From the NCBI GenBank assembly GCA_035549195.1, contig DASZRK010000055.1, forward strand, positions 7,231 to 71,230: DNA of 64,000 nucleotides, read 5' to 3'. A model generated the notes under the pieces. The model saw only the letters and a program-made list of their open reading frames with translations. It had not been told where the DNA came from and did no database searches. How positions within the stretch are numbered: the stretch's first letter is position 1; every line of letters starts with the position of its first letter. The translations under genes were made by a program, and so were the position numbers. Shown here piece after piece: positions 48,234 to 53,851 of this stretch. The stretch comes from a bacterium. Lineage in GTDB: Bacteria; Oederibacteriota; Muellerivitia; Muellerivitales; Muellerivitaceae.

Positions 48234-48965
48234 TTGAAGACCCTTCTGATCAGCGGCGGGACCAGGGGCATCGGACTCGCCATCGCCCGCGCTTTCCTCC
48301 GGAAGGGCTGGGCCCTCTCGACCTGCTACCATTCGGATGAGGTTTCCGCCCAAGCGGCGGCCGTGGAATTCACCGCCCTGGGGGGCGATTTCCAGGTCGT
48401 CAAGGCCGACATGGGAAAGGAAGCCGAGGTCCGGGCCTGGGTCGCCGGCGCCCTGGAACGTTGGGGCCGCCTGGATTGCGTCCTTCACAATGCCGGGGCC
48501 ACCTGGAACGCCCGCCTTCTGAACGTGGAAGAAACCGAATGGAAGGCCACCATGGATGTCCATCTCAAGGGGGCCTACCTGATGACCCAAGCCGCCTTGA
48601 AGCCCATGCTCAAACAGAAGGACGGCCACTTCATCTTCATTTCCTCCATCGTGGCGACCACCGGCAATATCGGCCAGGGGGCCTATACGGCGGCCAAAGC
48701 GGGCATGCTGGGTTTTGCCCGGAGCCTGGCCCAGGAATATGGGGGAAGGAACCTGCGGGCCAACGTGGTCTTTCCGGGTTTCCACAAGACCCGGATCGCG
48801 GACAACCTTTCCCCGGAGGCCGAGGAGGCCATCCGCCAGCGGCACCTTTTGGGGCGAACGGCGGACCTGGGCGAGGTGGCGGAGTTCGTGACCTGGCTTG
48901 CGGGGACGAAGAACATCTCGGGCCAGGTCTTCAACCTGGATTCCCGCCTGCCCGGCTGGCTTTGA
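48234..48965 (+). CDS. fabG: 3-oxoacyl-ACP reductase-like SDR
   Basis: Motifs ISGGTRGIG, HNAG, YTAAKAG (YxxxK), N.V.PGFHKT, SGQV. Confidence 0.82.
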   Translation: MKTLLISGGTRGIGLAIARAFLRKGWALSTCYHSDEVSAQAAAVEFTALGGDFQVVKADMGKEAEVRAWVAGALERWGRLDCVLHNAGATWNARLLNVEETEWKATMDVHLKGAYLMTQAALKPMLKQKDGHFIFISSIVATTGNIGQGAYTAAKAGMLGFARSLAQEYGGRNLRANVVFPGFHKTRIADNLSPEAEEAIRQRHLLGRTADLGEVAEFVTWLAGTKNISGQVFNLDSRLPGWL

Positions 48966-50143
48966 TGCCCGAACCCATCGTGGTGACGGGATGGGGCGCG
49001 GTGACCCCCTTGGGGCCCGATTCCCAGAGGACTTGGGAGGGTCTTTGGTCCGAGGAGAAACCCTACCGTCGTTTGAAGGGCGGCGAGTGGGACGCCTTCG
49101 AGGAGCCCAAGGCGGCCTATGCCATCGAAGGATGGACGCCTGACAAGCTGCTGTCCCGGGATCGTTCCCTGAAACTTGCCTATGTTTGTTCGGAGGAAGC
49201 CTGGAAGATGGCGGGTCTCTACAAAGTCGCGCCGGGACGTATCGCGACCACTTTTTCCTCGAGCAAAGGGGGAGTCCTCAGCCTCCTGGCCGCCGCAGGG
49301 GACCCGCCTCCCGAATGGGATTTCCTCAGCGACTTTTTTCCCCATGCCAGCGGCAAGCTCCTGAGGGAAAGGTTCGGTTTCGCCGGACCTTCCCTGTCCG
49401 TGACCTCGGCCTGTTCCACGGGGATCGGGAGCATCGCCATGGGCGCGCGTCTTTTGGAGGACGGGGACTGCGACGCGGTCCTGACCGGGACGACCGAATC
49501 CTCCATCCACCCCCTGATCTACGCAGGTTTCCAGAACATGGGGGTCCTGAGCCGCAGGGATGAGGGGCCGGCGCCCTTCGATAGGGCCAGGGATGGTTTC
49601 CGCATGGGCGAAGGCGCCGCCATGCTGGTCCTGGAAAGGGAGCGGACGGCGAGGAAAAGGAAGGCGAAAGTGCTGGCCAGGCTTTCGGGATGGGCCTTGG
49701 GCGCCGACGCCCATGGGATGCTGGAAATGGAACCCAAAGGGGATACCATCATTCCCTTGGTCCTGCGCGCCTTGGATCGGGCGGGCCTCCAACCCTCCGA
49801 TATAGGCTATATCAATGCCCATGGCACGGGGACGCGTTTGAACGACCTGGTCGAAAGCCGGGCCTTGAAACGGGTTTTTGGGGAGGACGGCCCTTGGGTC
49901 AGTTCCACCAAAGGGGCCACGGGCCATCTCTTGGGCGCGGCGGGCAGCGTGGAGGCGGTCCTGGCCGCCATGGTGCTGGAAAAGGGACGGGTGCCCGATA
50001 CGAGGAACCTCCAGGACCCGGACCCTGAATGCCATTTGCGCCATGTTCCCAAAGGGGGCGTGGAAGAGAAATTGGACCATGTCATGTCCCTTTCTTATGG
50101 GTTCGGGGGGCAATTGGGGGCTGTGATCTTTTCCAGGGCCTGA
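48965..50143 (+). CDS. fabF: Beta-ketoacyl-ACP synthase (FabF-like)
   Basis: Motifs VVTGWGAVTPLG, SACSTG (catalytic Cys), PFDRARDGF.MGEGA, NAHGTGT.LND, STKGATGHLLGAAG, SYGFGG. Confidence 0.88.
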   Translation: MPEPIVVTGWGAVTPLGPDSQRTWEGLWSEEKPYRRLKGGEWDAFEEPKAAYAIEGWTPDKLLSRDRSLKLAYVCSEEAWKMAGLYKVAPGRIATTFSSSKGGVLSLLAAAGDPPPEWDFLSDFFPHASGKLLRERFGFAGPSLSVTSACSTGIGSIAMGARLLEDGDCDAVLTGTTESSIHPLIYAGFQNMGVLSRRDEGPAPFDRARDGFRMGEGAAMLVLERERTARKRKAKVLARLSGWALGADAHGMLEMEPKGDTIIPLVLRALDRAGLQPSDIGYINAHGTGTRLNDLVESRALKRVFGEDGPWVSSTKGATGHLLGAAGSVEAVLAAMVLEKGRVPDTRNLQDPDPECHLRHVPKGGVEEKLDHVMSLSYGFGGQLGAVIFSRA

Positions 50144-50153
50144 AAGGTTTTCG

Positions 50154-50573
50154 GTGAAAATAAGAACGGCACAACTCGAGGACAGTTCATTGCTGGCTTT
50201 GATGAATCGCCGTCTCATCCGGGACTCGGGGCATCGTAATTCCATGAATGCCGCTCAATTGAACCGCCGAATGCGGGGGTGGCTTCGGGGCGAATATAAG
50301 GGGTGTGTTTTTGAAGAAGCCGGGTCTGCGCTTGGATATTGCATTTACCGCAAGGAAAAGGAATTCCTTTATATCCGTCAGTTCTATATCGAGCCCGCAC
50401 ACCGGAGGAAAGGATTGGGGTTGCGGGCCTTGAGGGTTCTTCGGAAGACGGTCTGGAAAAAGTACCCCCTCCTTCGGATGGATGTGTTGGTCGATAACGG
50501 GCCGGGGGTCCGCTTTTGGCGGGCGGCAGGTTTCCGCGATTACTGCTTAACTTTGGAGAGTGATAATCGATGA
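50154..50573 (+). CDS. GNAT family N-acetyltransferase
   Basis: Motifs IRQFYIEPAHRRKGLG, N..GVRFWRA.GF. Overlaps the bioF start (ATGA). Confidence 0.85.
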   Translation: MKIRTAQLEDSSLLALMNRRLIRDSGHRNSMNAAQLNRRMRGWLRGEYKGCVFEEAGSALGYCIYRKEKEFLYIRQFYIEPAHRRKGLGLRALRVLRKTVWKKYPLLRMDVLVDNGPGVRFWRAAGFRDYCLTLESDNR

Positions 50574-52400: not shown

Positions 52401-52458
52401 ACTGAGTTCGCTTCGCCGTGAACGACCGCCTATTCGGCGGCACTCCTCGCAATGACGG
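52392..52458. repeat. Partial REP/RPE-like element
   Basis: GCTTCGCC, then hairpin CCGCC-tattc-GGCGG, then CTCCTCGCAATGACGG; same architecture as 9035-9126. Confidence 0.55.
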
Positions 52459-52462
52459 AAAA

Positions 52463-53851
52463 ATGGACCACCGAACACTTTCCCGAAAAGATAAAAAATA
52501 CCTCTGGCATCCCTTTACCCAGCAACAGGAATGGGAAAGGGACCCGGATATCACCATCCTCACCCGGGGCAAAGGAACTTATCTTTACGATGCCAAGGGA
52601 AGGCGATACCTGGACGGCGTCTCATCCCTCTGGTGCAACGTCCATGGTCACCAAGTGCCTGTCATCGACCGGGCCATCCAACGCCAACTAAAAAAAATAG
52701 CCCACTCCACCCTGCTCGGCGCTTCCAACGAGCCGGCCATCCTGCTGGCGGAAAAACTCGTTCAAATGGCGCCCAGGGGACTGACCCGGGTCTTCTATTC
52801 CGATTCCGGTTCCGAGGCCAACGAGATCGCCATGAAGATGGCTTTCCAGTACTGGCAACAGGCCCGTCCGACCCCCGCTGGTCCGGGGCGGACGGGACGC
52901 CGTTCAAAAAAGGACCTGTTCCTGACGGTTCGAGAGGGCTATCACGGGGACACGGTGGGGTCGGTCAGCCTGGGAGGGATCGACCTTTTCCATGGCATCT
53001 TTGGACCGCTCCTTTTTAAGACGCTCAAGGTCAAAAGTCCCCATGAATACCCGAGCCGCCACGTTTCGAACGAGGATTGGTTGAAGGATTGTGTCCGGGA
53101 AGCGGAAGGCGTTTTCCGGAAATATGGGTCCCGGTTGGCGGCGGTCCATATGGAGCCGCTCATCGAAGGGGCGGGAGGGATGCTGCTCCATCCCTGGGGT
53201 TACCTGAAGGCCATCCGCCGTCTTTGCGACCGCCATGACGTGCTCCTGATCCTGGACGAGGTGGCGACCGGCTTTGGACGCACGGGAACGATGTTCGCCT
53301 GCGACCAGGAGAATGTCCGGCCCGATATCCTTTGCCTGGCCAAGAACCTGACCGGAGGTTACTTGCCGGTGGCGGCGACCCTGACCTCGGAAAAGGTCTA
53401 CCGGGCGTTCCTCGGCAAATTCGAGTCGGGACGGACCTTCTATCATGGCCATACCTTCACGGGGAACCAGTTGGGTTGCGCGGCGGCCTTGGCGAACGTG
53501 GGCCTTTATGAGCGCAAAGGCTTCATGGCTTCCGTGGCGCGAAAGGCCGGGCTGCTCCAGGACTGGGTGGCGTCCCTGGAGGATCATCCCCATGTGGGCG
53601 AGGTCCGATTGAGGGGGCTGATGGGTGGCATCGAGCTGGTGAAGGACAAGAAGAAGGGAATCCCGTACCCATATGCCTTGAAGATGGGTCATCGCGTTTG
53701 CGCCGAAGCCAAGAAGCGAGGGGTGCTCCTGCGGCCCTTGGGGAATGTCATCGTCCTGATGCCGCCTTTGGCCATATCCGAAACCGACCTGAAGCGGTTG
53801 ATCAAGGTCATTACGGAAAGCATCGAAACGGCGACCCAGGTTCGCTTTTAA
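52463..53851 (+). CDS. bioA: Adenosylmethionine-8-amino-7-oxononanoate aminotransferase
   Basis: Motifs LWHPFTQ, DGVSSLW...HGH, DSGSEA.EIAMKMA, YHGDT, DEVATGFGRTG, AKNLTGG, HGHTF.GN, LRPLG. Confidence 0.95.
   Translation: MDHRTLSRKDKKYLWHPFTQQQEWERDPDITILTRGKGTYLYDAKGRRYLDGVSSLWCNVHGHQVPVIDRAIQRQLKKIAHSTLLGASNEPAILLAEKLVQMAPRGLTRVFYSDSGSEANEIAMKMAFQYWQQARPTPAGPGRTGRRSKKDLFLTVREGYHGDTVGSVSLGGIDLFHGIFGPLLFKTLKVKSPHEYPSRHVSNEDWLKDCVREAEGVFRKYGSRLAAVHMEPLIEGAGGMLLHPWGYLKAIRRLCDRHDVLLILDEVATGFGRTGTMFACDQENVRPDILCLAKNLTGGYLPVAATLTSEKVYRAFLGKFESGRTFYHGHTFTGNQLGCAAALANVGLYERKGFMASVARKAGLLQDWVASLEDHPHVGEVRLRGLMGGIELVKDKKKGIPYPYALKMGHRVCAEAKKRGVLLRPLGNVIVLMPPLAISETDLKRLIKVITESIETATQVRF

Follow-up and report, generated by a model that had tools for sequence, protein, structure and literature searches.

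BioF, which consumes the seven-carbon precursor of biotin, requires this precursor as pimeloyl-acyl carrier protein (ACP) or pimeloyl-coenzyme A (CoA) (PMC7645780, PMC8024396, PMC12625853). The routes to pimelate named in a 2025 survey are BioC-BioH, BioI/BioW, BioZ and BioE (PMC12704756). The active sites of fatty-acid synthesis (FAS) enzymes have been argued to be intolerant of a free carboxyl group (PMC7645780, PMC8024396). Because these sites are hydrophobic, a condensation of three malonates has been discounted, and E. coli therefore hides this group behind a methyl ester (BioC/BioH). The present analysis concerns a 64-kb window of contig DASZRK010000055.1 (64,000 nucleotides, GenBank assembly GCA_035549195.1), from a bacterium of the GTDB lineage Oederibacteriota. 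In this window, a FabG-like short-chain dehydrogenase/reductase (SDR) gene and a FabF-like ketosynthase (KS) gene stand at the head of a bioF-bioD-bioA operon.

The closest described arrangement is the bio cluster of Desulfovibrio (DVU2558-DVU2565), which contains bioB, two FabZ-like genes, a FabG-like gene, an ACP gene, a FabF-like gene and bioF/A/D (Rodionov 2004, PMC545781; Trotter 2023, PMC10102598). The system has genetic support from random-barcode transposon sequencing (RB-TnSeq), with no biochemistry (PMC10102598), and its published distribution covers Desulfobacterota and Desulfurispirillum (PMC545781; PMC10102598). The locus described here shares with it FabG- and FabF-like paralogs beside bioF/A/D, and in both cases the proposed chemistry extends malonyl to a pimeloyl thioester whose carboxyl group stays free, without a methyl ester; bioC/bioH are absent from the Desulfovibrio hosts. 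Unlike the Desulfovibrio cluster, the module here consists of a reductase and a KS alone: neither the window nor any of the 11 loci compared has a dedicated ACP, a FabZ paralog or a nitroreductase-like gene. It occurs in Elusimicrobia/Endomicrobiales, Planctomycetota and the window's lineage. The two are set apart here by published gene content, DVU2563 and DVU2561 being the candidate counterparts of the KS and the SDR; no Desulfovibrio sequence was found among the best 120 protein matches listed. A preliminary interpretation of the same DNA made without database searches (the sequence-only reading) had named the Desulfovibrio paralogs as a precedent. This precedent is real (PMC545781; PMC10102598), but its architecture is not shared, as ACP and FabZ are missing here.

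BioZ is the second point of comparison. This enzyme of alpha-proteobacteria is also a KS paralog that is encoded with bio genes and bypasses BioC-BioH, and it condenses a free-carboxyl glutaryl primer with malonyl-ACP, yielding a 3-oxo-C7 thioester (PMC7645780, PMC8024396, PMC12625853). To accept glutaryl, BioZ is believed to require polar or basic residues at its pocket end (PMC7645780, PMC8024396), and its C7 3-oxo free-carboxyl product is turned into pimeloyl-ACP in vitro by E. coli FabG, FabA and FabI (PMC7645780). The KS described here would likewise need a pocket that tolerates or neutralises an omega-carboxylate. However, BioZ has the FabH fold, that of 3-oxoacyl-ACP synthase (KAS) III, with a Cys-His-Asn triad and an acyl-CoA primer, whereas the KS here combines the KAS II fold with a Cys-His-His triad. 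BioZ uses the housekeeping FabG, whereas a dedicated reductase co-occurs here. The determinants of specificity also differ, with the back-gate Ile replaced by Lys here. The KS fails as a member of the BioZ family: its best matches are all KAS II enzymes, and linkage to bio genes is the only feature in common. The remaining systems, BioC-BioH, BioI, BioW and BioE, fill the same role of providing a pimeloyl thioester or pimelate for BioF. No homologue of these was seen in the window, and their chemistry is of another kind. They work by a methyl-ester disguise and an esterase, by oxidative cleavage of fatty acids with a cytochrome P450 (P450) or a diiron enzyme, or by a pimelate ligase; the oxidative routes need O2, and the module described here would not.

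The ketosynthase and reductase beside bioF

The KS has the fold and the catalytic residues of FabF, to which it is 32-37% identical, and an AlphaFold2 (AF2) model (predicted local distance difference test score, pLDDT, 83; predicted template-modelling score, pTM, 0.88) matches FabF structures with a template-modelling (TM) score of 0.87. The catalytic residues C150, H286, H321, K316 (equivalent to Lys335), F380 and the Thr residues are present, as is the gating loop Y378-G-F380-G-G (GFGG). However, the protein scores 295.9 bits against the FabF equivalog TIGR03150, for which the cut-off is 493.75, and it passed no other KS equivalog. When it was aligned to Thermus thermophilus FabF (1j3n) and E. 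coli FabF (sequence checked against 6okg), residues 98-103 were found to be SSSKGG in place of the E. coli segment GSGIGG. Ser100-Lys101 (window positions 49262-49267, motif TFSSSKGG) thereby align to Gly107-Ile108 of the FabF back gate. The second back-gate residue is kept, as F189 corresponds to FabF Phe202. In FabF, the back gate formed by I108 and F202 lies at about C7-C8 of the acyl chain in its bound state; I108 shows high conservation, and the I108F variant restricts chain length (PMC9006962).

This substitution defines a group of sequences. About 60 close relatives of the KS (60-85% identity), all from metagenomic bacteria, have an invariant TFSSSKGG motif, and distant relatives (37-45% identity) have S-x-S-K at the same site. 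Proteins assigned to Elusimicrobia, Endomicrobiales, Planctomycetes and Gimesia (cultured species) are among these distant relatives. Among 283 sequences compared, position 108 was Lys in all 189 KS of the clade and I/M/V/L in all 94 canonical FabF, and the combination of G107S and I108K occurred in 100% of the clade. Further discriminating positions are G105S, A182C, S306G and N396L, and the 120-130 loop is shortened. The clade lacks the equivalents of the surface residues K65, K128 and R206, positions that carry a basic residue in 77-91% of canonical FabF, R206 being the residue that contacts ACP Asp56 (PMC9006962); the Arg residues of the region-1 helix are kept (R65 and R67, in an RDRS motif). 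The clade was separated from canonical FabF with a neighbour-joining (NJ) bootstrap of 100/100 once one nested sequence with His-Met at positions 107-108, P0107, was set aside, and this support persisted without the signature columns. By these comparisons, the KS is a family of its own with a KAS II fold, separate from housekeeping FabF.

P0107 deserves mention in its own right. It nests with the Lys clade and shares the motifs HGTGT, HPL and LS.AFGG, and strict monophyly of all Lys-108 sequences failed with this Met-108 sequence inside the clade. A second sequence, P0106, also has Met at position 108. Both are metagenomic proteins of 417-420 aa and may represent a subfamily of other specificity. 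A clade-profile search of protein representatives returned giant multi-KS polyketide synthases as its best 150 matches and was uninformative on the diversity of the clade.

The SDR parallels the KS in being close to, and distinct from, a housekeeping enzyme. Its best solved relative is FabG 4dml (about 40% identity, as estimated from the alignment with that structure), and its catalytic triad is intact (S138, Y151, K155), whereas its score against the FabG equivalog TIGR01830 is 203.7 bits, the cut-off being 297.75. Ten bio-linked SDRs were compared with 47 FabG proteins from canonical fabG-acpP-fabF loci. R238 of the window SDR (48945-48947), lying within ...NLDSRLPGWL, occupies the position of FabG Gly240, and an Arg at this position was found in 10 of 10 bio-linked SDRs versus none of the 47 canonical FabG. 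A C-terminal LDSR (NLDSR) replaces the FabG motif (V/I)(N/D)GG, with ...NLDSR standing for ...VNGG. The bio-linked SDRs are further marked by I184H (7/10), His for Val/Ile204 (8/10), T231S (10/10) and a deletion of two residues. The positions at which FabG docks ACP, R129 and R172, are partly kept, being K129 and R172 in the window SDR. In both enzymes, therefore, polar or basic residues have appeared at sites that are hydrophobic or glycine in the housekeeping counterparts. The SDR is taken, from its sequence relationships, to be a bio-linked 3-oxoacyl-thioester reductase and a FabG paralog.

The genomic contexts of the clade, which were sampled from database matches to the window KS, link it to biotin synthesis. 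In 10 of 11 independent loci, bioF lies directly downstream of the clade KS, and in all linked loci the two are separated by a short gap or their frames overlap, the largest gap being 169 nt (L089). In 9 of the 11, the gene immediately preceding the KS is that of the SDR. The gene order is SDR-KS-(GNAT)-bioF-bioD-bioA in the window and in L003, L005 and L006 of the window's lineage, where GNAT denotes an acetyltransferase gene, and SDR-KS-bioF-bioD-bioA in L093, a 40%-identical relative that also has rimO-pgsA-pgpA-cinA-ligT downstream. Elsewhere, it is bioB-ABC-ABC-SDR-KS-bioF-bioD in an Elusimicrobia locus (L088), bioB-KS-bioF in a Planctomycetota metagenome-assembled genome (MAG; L089), SDR-KS-bioF-bioA-bioD in two further MAGs (L090, L092), and bioB-SDR-KS-bioF-bioD-bioA and bioB-SDR-KS-bioF in two metagenomic contigs (L091 and L095, respectively). 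Accordingly, the module is immediately preceded by bioB in L089, L091 and L095, whereas in L088 two ATP-binding cassette (ABC) transporter genes intervene. The SDR and KS frames, as called, overlap in the window, L003, L006, L090, L091, L092 and L093, and are separated by a short gap in L005, L088 and L095. The 11 loci span at least three deep lineages, including Elusimicrobia, Planctomycetota and the window's lineage.

As a control, 80 loci were obtained by a family-alignment search of genome contigs, taken among the matches listed (generic motif TGHLLGAA). All of these are canonical FabF loci (32-39% identity), with no clade member among the matches listed. bioF was found in none of the 80, with flanks of up to 10 kb on each side, whereas acpP adjoins fabF in about 50 of them. 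Conversely, no clade locus gave a tblastn match to E. coli ACP, and no ACP, FabZ/FabA hot-dog or nitroreductase-like gene was found in the 11 loci with flanks of up to 8-10 kb. For the dehydratases, the genes called in L003-L007 and L088-L095 were checked for hot-dog or FabA/FabZ Pfam families, and none was found.

The window itself contains no other apparent source of pimelate. No bioC/H/W/I/Z-like gene and no other fab gene is present in the 64 kb, and no FabZ, P450, FabH-like enzyme or acyl-CoA ligase was seen among the window open reading frames (ORFs) read. A search of the six frames of the window for the phosphopantetheine-site motif GxDS(L/I/V/M) of ACP was negative, and tblastn of the window with two BioB proteins gave a best E of 0.95. 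The only S-adenosylmethionine (SAM) methyltransferase in the window (7161-7946; Methyltransf_23 with an N-terminal zinc ribbon) scores 17.6 bits as BioC, against a cut-off of 185. Its gene overlaps by one base that of an AXE1 acetyl-xylan-esterase (6199-7161), and the pair (6199-7946) was considered as BioH/BioC and ruled out, the esterase scoring 405 bits as AXE1. A methyltransferase near the L092 cluster was likewise ruled out as BioC. The sequence-only reading had stated that neither pimelate-supplying genes nor bioB are in the window, with which the BioB search, the BioC score and the reading of ORFs agree; it had also described an intact triad and an SSKGG segment in place of G.GIGG in the FabF-like protein, as borne out by C150/H286/H321 and SSSKGG at 98-103. 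The SSKGG segment proved to be the central feature, its Lys taking the place of Ile108.

Proposed reaction and competing explanations

Overall, the SDR and KS probably form a dedicated and translationally coupled two-enzyme module that supplies the pimeloyl thioester of BioF and replaces BioC-BioH, BioW/BioI, BioZ and BioE. Since the same pair adjoins bioF in several phyla, it probably represents an undescribed route to the seven-carbon precursor of biotin. Gene order, family separation, signature residues and the conserved linkage to bioF are observed, whereas this function, with its substrate, its carrier, how many rounds are run and what the basic residues do, is inferred from the sequences and the neighbouring genes. 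The sequence-only reading had likewise proposed dedicated pimelate-forming paralogs rather than housekeeping enzymes, and the sub-cut-off scores, the 100/100 clade, the cross-phylum adjacency to bioF and the basic residues all speak for this proposal.

In the mechanism proposed, the KS would retain the full decarboxylative-Claisen machinery of the KAS II fold, with the Gly107-Ile108 back gate turned into Ser-Lys. The Lys, aided by the Ser, would neutralise the omega-carboxylate left free on a short dicarboxylic chain bound to the active-site Cys, glutaryl (C5) being the most plausible such chain. Condensation of glutaryl with a malonyl thioester would give a 3-oxopimeloyl thioester, and the SDR, with its invariant Arg and its His substitutions, would reduce this charged 3-oxo intermediate. 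Dehydration and the reduction of the enoyl group are assigned to general enzymes of the cell, with housekeeping ACP or CoA as the carrier, because in no locus does an ACP, FabZ or enoyl reductase lie beside the module; these host enzymes would complete pimeloyl-ACP or pimeloyl-CoA as the substrate of BioF. An earlier round, from malonyl plus malonyl through 3-oxoglutaryl to glutaryl, may be carried out by the same pair as well.

The steps of this scheme are held with different confidence. The condensation of glutaryl with malonyl to 3-oxopimeloyl, followed by a dedicated reduction, is the predicted step held with the most confidence, and it is favoured because the position of the gate best fits the carboxylate of a Cys-bound glutaryl. 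That the pair performs both elongation rounds from malonyl with the omega-carboxylate free, the long-postulated "three malonates" route, is a tentative suggestion that we regard as rather doubtful. If true, this version would require two dedicated proteins together with housekeeping ACP, FabZ and FabI, and would be independent of both O2 and a methyl ester.

Several points weigh against the proposed function. A first round from malonyl is weakly supported, because a gate at about C7-C8 is far from the carboxylate of malonyl (C3). The placement of Lys101 in the pocket is predicted from the FabF alignment and published FabF structures, and the role given to the Arg of the SDR is our inference. 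The carrier may be one other than housekeeping ACP, as the KS clade lacks K65, K128 and R206. The contexts were drawn from database matches to the window KS rather than by an unbiased census. The gene-absence evidence covers the 64-kb window, and bioC-bioH, bioW or a dedicated ACP/FabZ could be encoded elsewhere in the genome. Finally, the KS of Gimesia panareensis, a cultured planctomycete with a complete genome (L094, 10001-11287; CP036317.1, 1589539-1590825; motif VIGSSKGGM), stands alone, away from bio genes, and is the sole exception to the linkage.

Four other explanations were weighed. One is that the pair follows a Desulfovibrio-type logic, in which a specialised ACP, FabZ-type dehydratases and perhaps a nitroreductase-like enoyl reductase are encoded elsewhere. 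In D. vulgaris, the FabG, FabF, ACP and two FabZ-like proteins of the bio cluster, together with DVU1220, which is encoded outside it, are needed for biotin-free growth (PMC10102598, PMC545781), and the loss of conserved ACP-docking basic residues from the K-type KS would suit a non-canonical carrier. However, obligatory partners would be expected to co-locate sometimes, as they do in Desulfovibrio, whereas no ACP, hot-dog or nitroreductase gene was found in the flanks of any of the 11 loci. This explanation is considered unlikely.

Another explanation, which also appears improbable, is that the module works on CoA thioesters. Glutaryl-CoA and malonyl-CoA would give 3-oxopimeloyl-CoA and then 3-hydroxypimeloyl-CoA, and general crotonase and acyl-CoA dehydrogenase-type enzymes would complete pimeloyl-CoA, so that the pathway would amount to a decarboxylation-driven reversal of pimeloyl-CoA beta-oxidation. 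The absence of ACP from every locus, the loss of K65, K128 and R206 (the last being the Asp56 contact) from the KS clade, the partial retention of the FabG docking residues R129 and R172 in bio-linked SDRs and the acceptance of glutaryl-CoA by BioZ (PMC7645780) all fit this version. However, the window SDR is basic at both docking positions, the KS keeps R65 and R67 (RDRS) in region 1, FabB also has Gly at 206 and yet uses ACP, and KAS I/II enzymes characteristically use acyl-ACP. The evidence being mixed, loss of ACP-docking residues was not accepted as proof of CoA use.

The pair might instead make a product other than pimelate, such as another short functionalised acyl chain, and be co-regulated with the bio genes since biotin-dependent carboxylases feed malonyl-CoA. 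The function assigned here does rest on context, the Gimesia KS lies away from bio genes, and the His-Met sister sequence P0107 indicates that specificity is not uniform in the clade. However, the KS adjoins bioF, the pimeloyl-consuming enzyme, in 10 of 11 contexts with a gap of at most 169 nt, the window has no other source of a pimeloyl thioester, and the charge-reversing substitutions suit a dicarboxylate, which together make a different product very unlikely. Lastly, it is scarcely credible that these are a housekeeping FabG and FabF lying beside bio genes by chance, perhaps as the only copies in the genome: although FabG and FabF are what the pair matches best in Pfam, NCBIfam and the PDB, no catalytic residue is lost and the window has no other fab genes, the scores reach 60-69% of the equivalog cut-offs, a universally hydrophobic back-gate residue is Lys here, the clade is separate (100/100), acpP, fabD and fabH are not nearby (compared with acpP in about 50 of 80 canonical loci), and the arrangement of the pair with bioF recurs across phyla.

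Operon layout, neighbouring genes and the rest of the window

The six ORFs from the SDR to bioA are closely packed in one orientation (Table 1). The SDR stop and KS start overlap as TGATG (48963-48967), the KS ATG using the A of the SDR TGA, and the GNAT stop and bioF start overlap as ATGA (50570-50573). The sequence-only reading had reported the six co-oriented genes with these two overlaps, and all were found in place. BioF, BioD and BioA each score above the NCBIfam equivalog cut-off. The bioD ORF opens at 51681, and the TIGR00347 match begins at residue 23 of this long ORF; the start is likely at 51735, because the length of the product then matches that of 221-aa relatives.

Table 1. Features of the biotin operon region, in window coordinates
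Feature	Position	Strand	Match or remark
Terminator-like hairpin	47287..47313	+	11-bp stem, T-run; closes upstream gene
Membrane protein, 185 aa	47341..47898	+	No Pfam or NCBIfam match
Small membrane protein, 102 aa	47895..48203	+	ATGA overlap with the 47341-47898 gene; stops 30 nt before SDR
SDR (FabG-like)	48234..48965	+	Pfam adh_short
KS (FabF-like)	48965..50143	+	Pfam ketoacyl-synt, N and C
GNAT acetyltransferase	50154..50573	+	Pfam Acetyltransf_1; no NCBIfam family matched
bioF, 8-amino-7-oxononanoate synthase	50570..51724	+	Pfam Aminotran_1_2; TIGR00858 467.9 bits (cut-off 426.45)
bioD, dethiobiotin synthase	51735..52400	+	Pfam AAA_26; TIGR00347 169.2 bits (cut-off 83.3)
bioA, adenosylmethionine-8-amino-7-oxononanoate transaminase	52418..53851	+	Pfam Aminotran_3; TIGR00508 517.8 bits (cut-off 405)
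rimO, S12 methylthiotransferase	53880..55256	+	TIGR01125 475 bits (cut-off 357)

The GNAT gene between KS and bioF is found at this junction in the window, L003 and L006, and is absent from it in L005, L093 and all cross-phylum loci (L088-L092 among them). The junction GNAT of L003 is an uncalled ORF with 58% identity to that of the window, and that of L006 is non-orthologous (19% identity); L003 has a different GNAT between bioD and bioA. The PDB matches of the window GNAT are marginal. The proportion of G+C at its third codon positions (GC3) is 0.60, compared with 0.68-0.88 in the adjoining genes, and this low value, together with the absence of the gene from some close relatives, suggests that it was inserted recently between KS and bioF. 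A role as a core component was rejected, the identity between loci being 19-21% and several loci having no GNAT, and a GNAT in L089 was rejected as a module member, being RimI. On these comparisons, the GNAT is an accessory insertion outside the conserved module. The sequence-only reading correctly placed it in the operon with its overlap with bioF; it is missing in several loci.

The hairpin at 47287-47313 is likely the 5' boundary of the transcription unit that contains the bio genes, and no comparable terminator was found from 47341 to rimO. Downstream, rimO, which is neither a bio gene nor BioB, heads a co-oriented housekeeping run, rimO-pgsA-pgpA-cinA-ligT. As no terminator separates bioA from this run, the unit probably extends beyond the bio genes and through it. 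The downstream rimO synteny is kept in L003, L005 and L093. A search for the BirA operator with the delta-proteobacterial consensus TTGTAAACC-N12-17-GGTTTACAA gave no match near the operon.

Both membrane-protein genes upstream of the SDR are kept at this position in L003, L005 and L006. The first (47341-47898), of which no homologue was found in L088-L095, is possibly co-transcribed with the bio genes, and is a within-lineage upstream neighbour that lies outside the cross-phylum module. The sole match of the second (47895-48203) is sub-threshold, to an energy-coupling factor (ECF) S-component family (E = 0.003, 17.6 bits, cut-off 76); a role in vitamin uptake is conceivable but unsupported. 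Further upstream, 46857-47276 encodes a 139-aa ORF with an extremely high content of Asp and Glu, long DDEDDEEDDDDDD runs and no Pfam match; L003, L005 and L006 likewise have it, flanked by the Mrr-like gene and the membrane genes. The Mrr-like gene (44898-46724) encodes a 608-aa protein with a membrane-associated N-terminus and two Mrr_cat restriction-endonuclease-like domains, and every relative of the window's lineage keeps it upstream of the bio genes.

Elsewhere in the window, 11193-13323 and 19481-27121 constitute a phosphate-regulon block with phoB/phoR-like two-component genes, a porin-like gene, pstS-pstC-pstA-(pstB)-phoU and a PhoU-like/PiT transporter pair. Two tandem thymidylate-kinase-like genes (257 and 272 aa) lie on the minus strand at 15297-16885. 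Also on the minus strand (27122-35189), a gene for a transglycosylase of the penicillin-binding protein 1C (PBP1C) type adjoins a gene for an 1889-aa alpha-2-macroglobulin-like protein, a pairing that is common in Gram-negative bacteria. The recA gene (37369-38520) has about 85 RecA clusters at 79-97% identity in public metagenomes, after which identity falls to at most 72% with mixed phyla; the uncultured lineage of the window is therefore sizeable.

The module and the pimelate supply of bacteria

What does the module add to the known pimelate systems? What appears to be new is a pair of genes that recurs across phyla, bears defined signature residues and differs in architecture from the Desulfovibrio cluster. 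In the literature searched, from which subscription journals are mostly missing, neither an SDR-KS-bioF module nor the Ser-Lys signature was found described, nor an occurrence in Elusimicrobia or Planctomycetes. The pimelate supply is the least settled part of bacterial biotin synthesis, and many genomes are still described with an "unclear" pimelate source (PMC11257099). The route of Endomicrobiaceae was among those reported as unclear in 2024 (PMC11257099), and KS proteins of the Ser-Lys clade are annotated from Endomicrobiales and Elusimicrobia MAGs.

In practical terms, a KAS II paralog with Ser-Lys at 107-108 and an SDR ending in ...NLDSR, both beside bioF, may serve as a marker that predicts biotin prototrophy where the pathway had looked incomplete. 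The comparison also gives rise to a single-residue hypothesis, namely that a change of Ile108 to Lys at the back gate lets a fatty-acid KS accept a charged dicarboxylic primer, with a possible use in engineering the production of dicarboxylates or biotin. It further bears on whether the Desulfovibrio pathway, still uncharacterised, needs an ACP and dehydratases of its own. If the three-malonate version is true, it would be a route that FAS enzymes were thought unable to perform, and it would fill the pimelate gap in Elusimicrobia/Endomicrobia (Elusimicrobiota) and supply the Planctomycetota carriers and the window's lineage.

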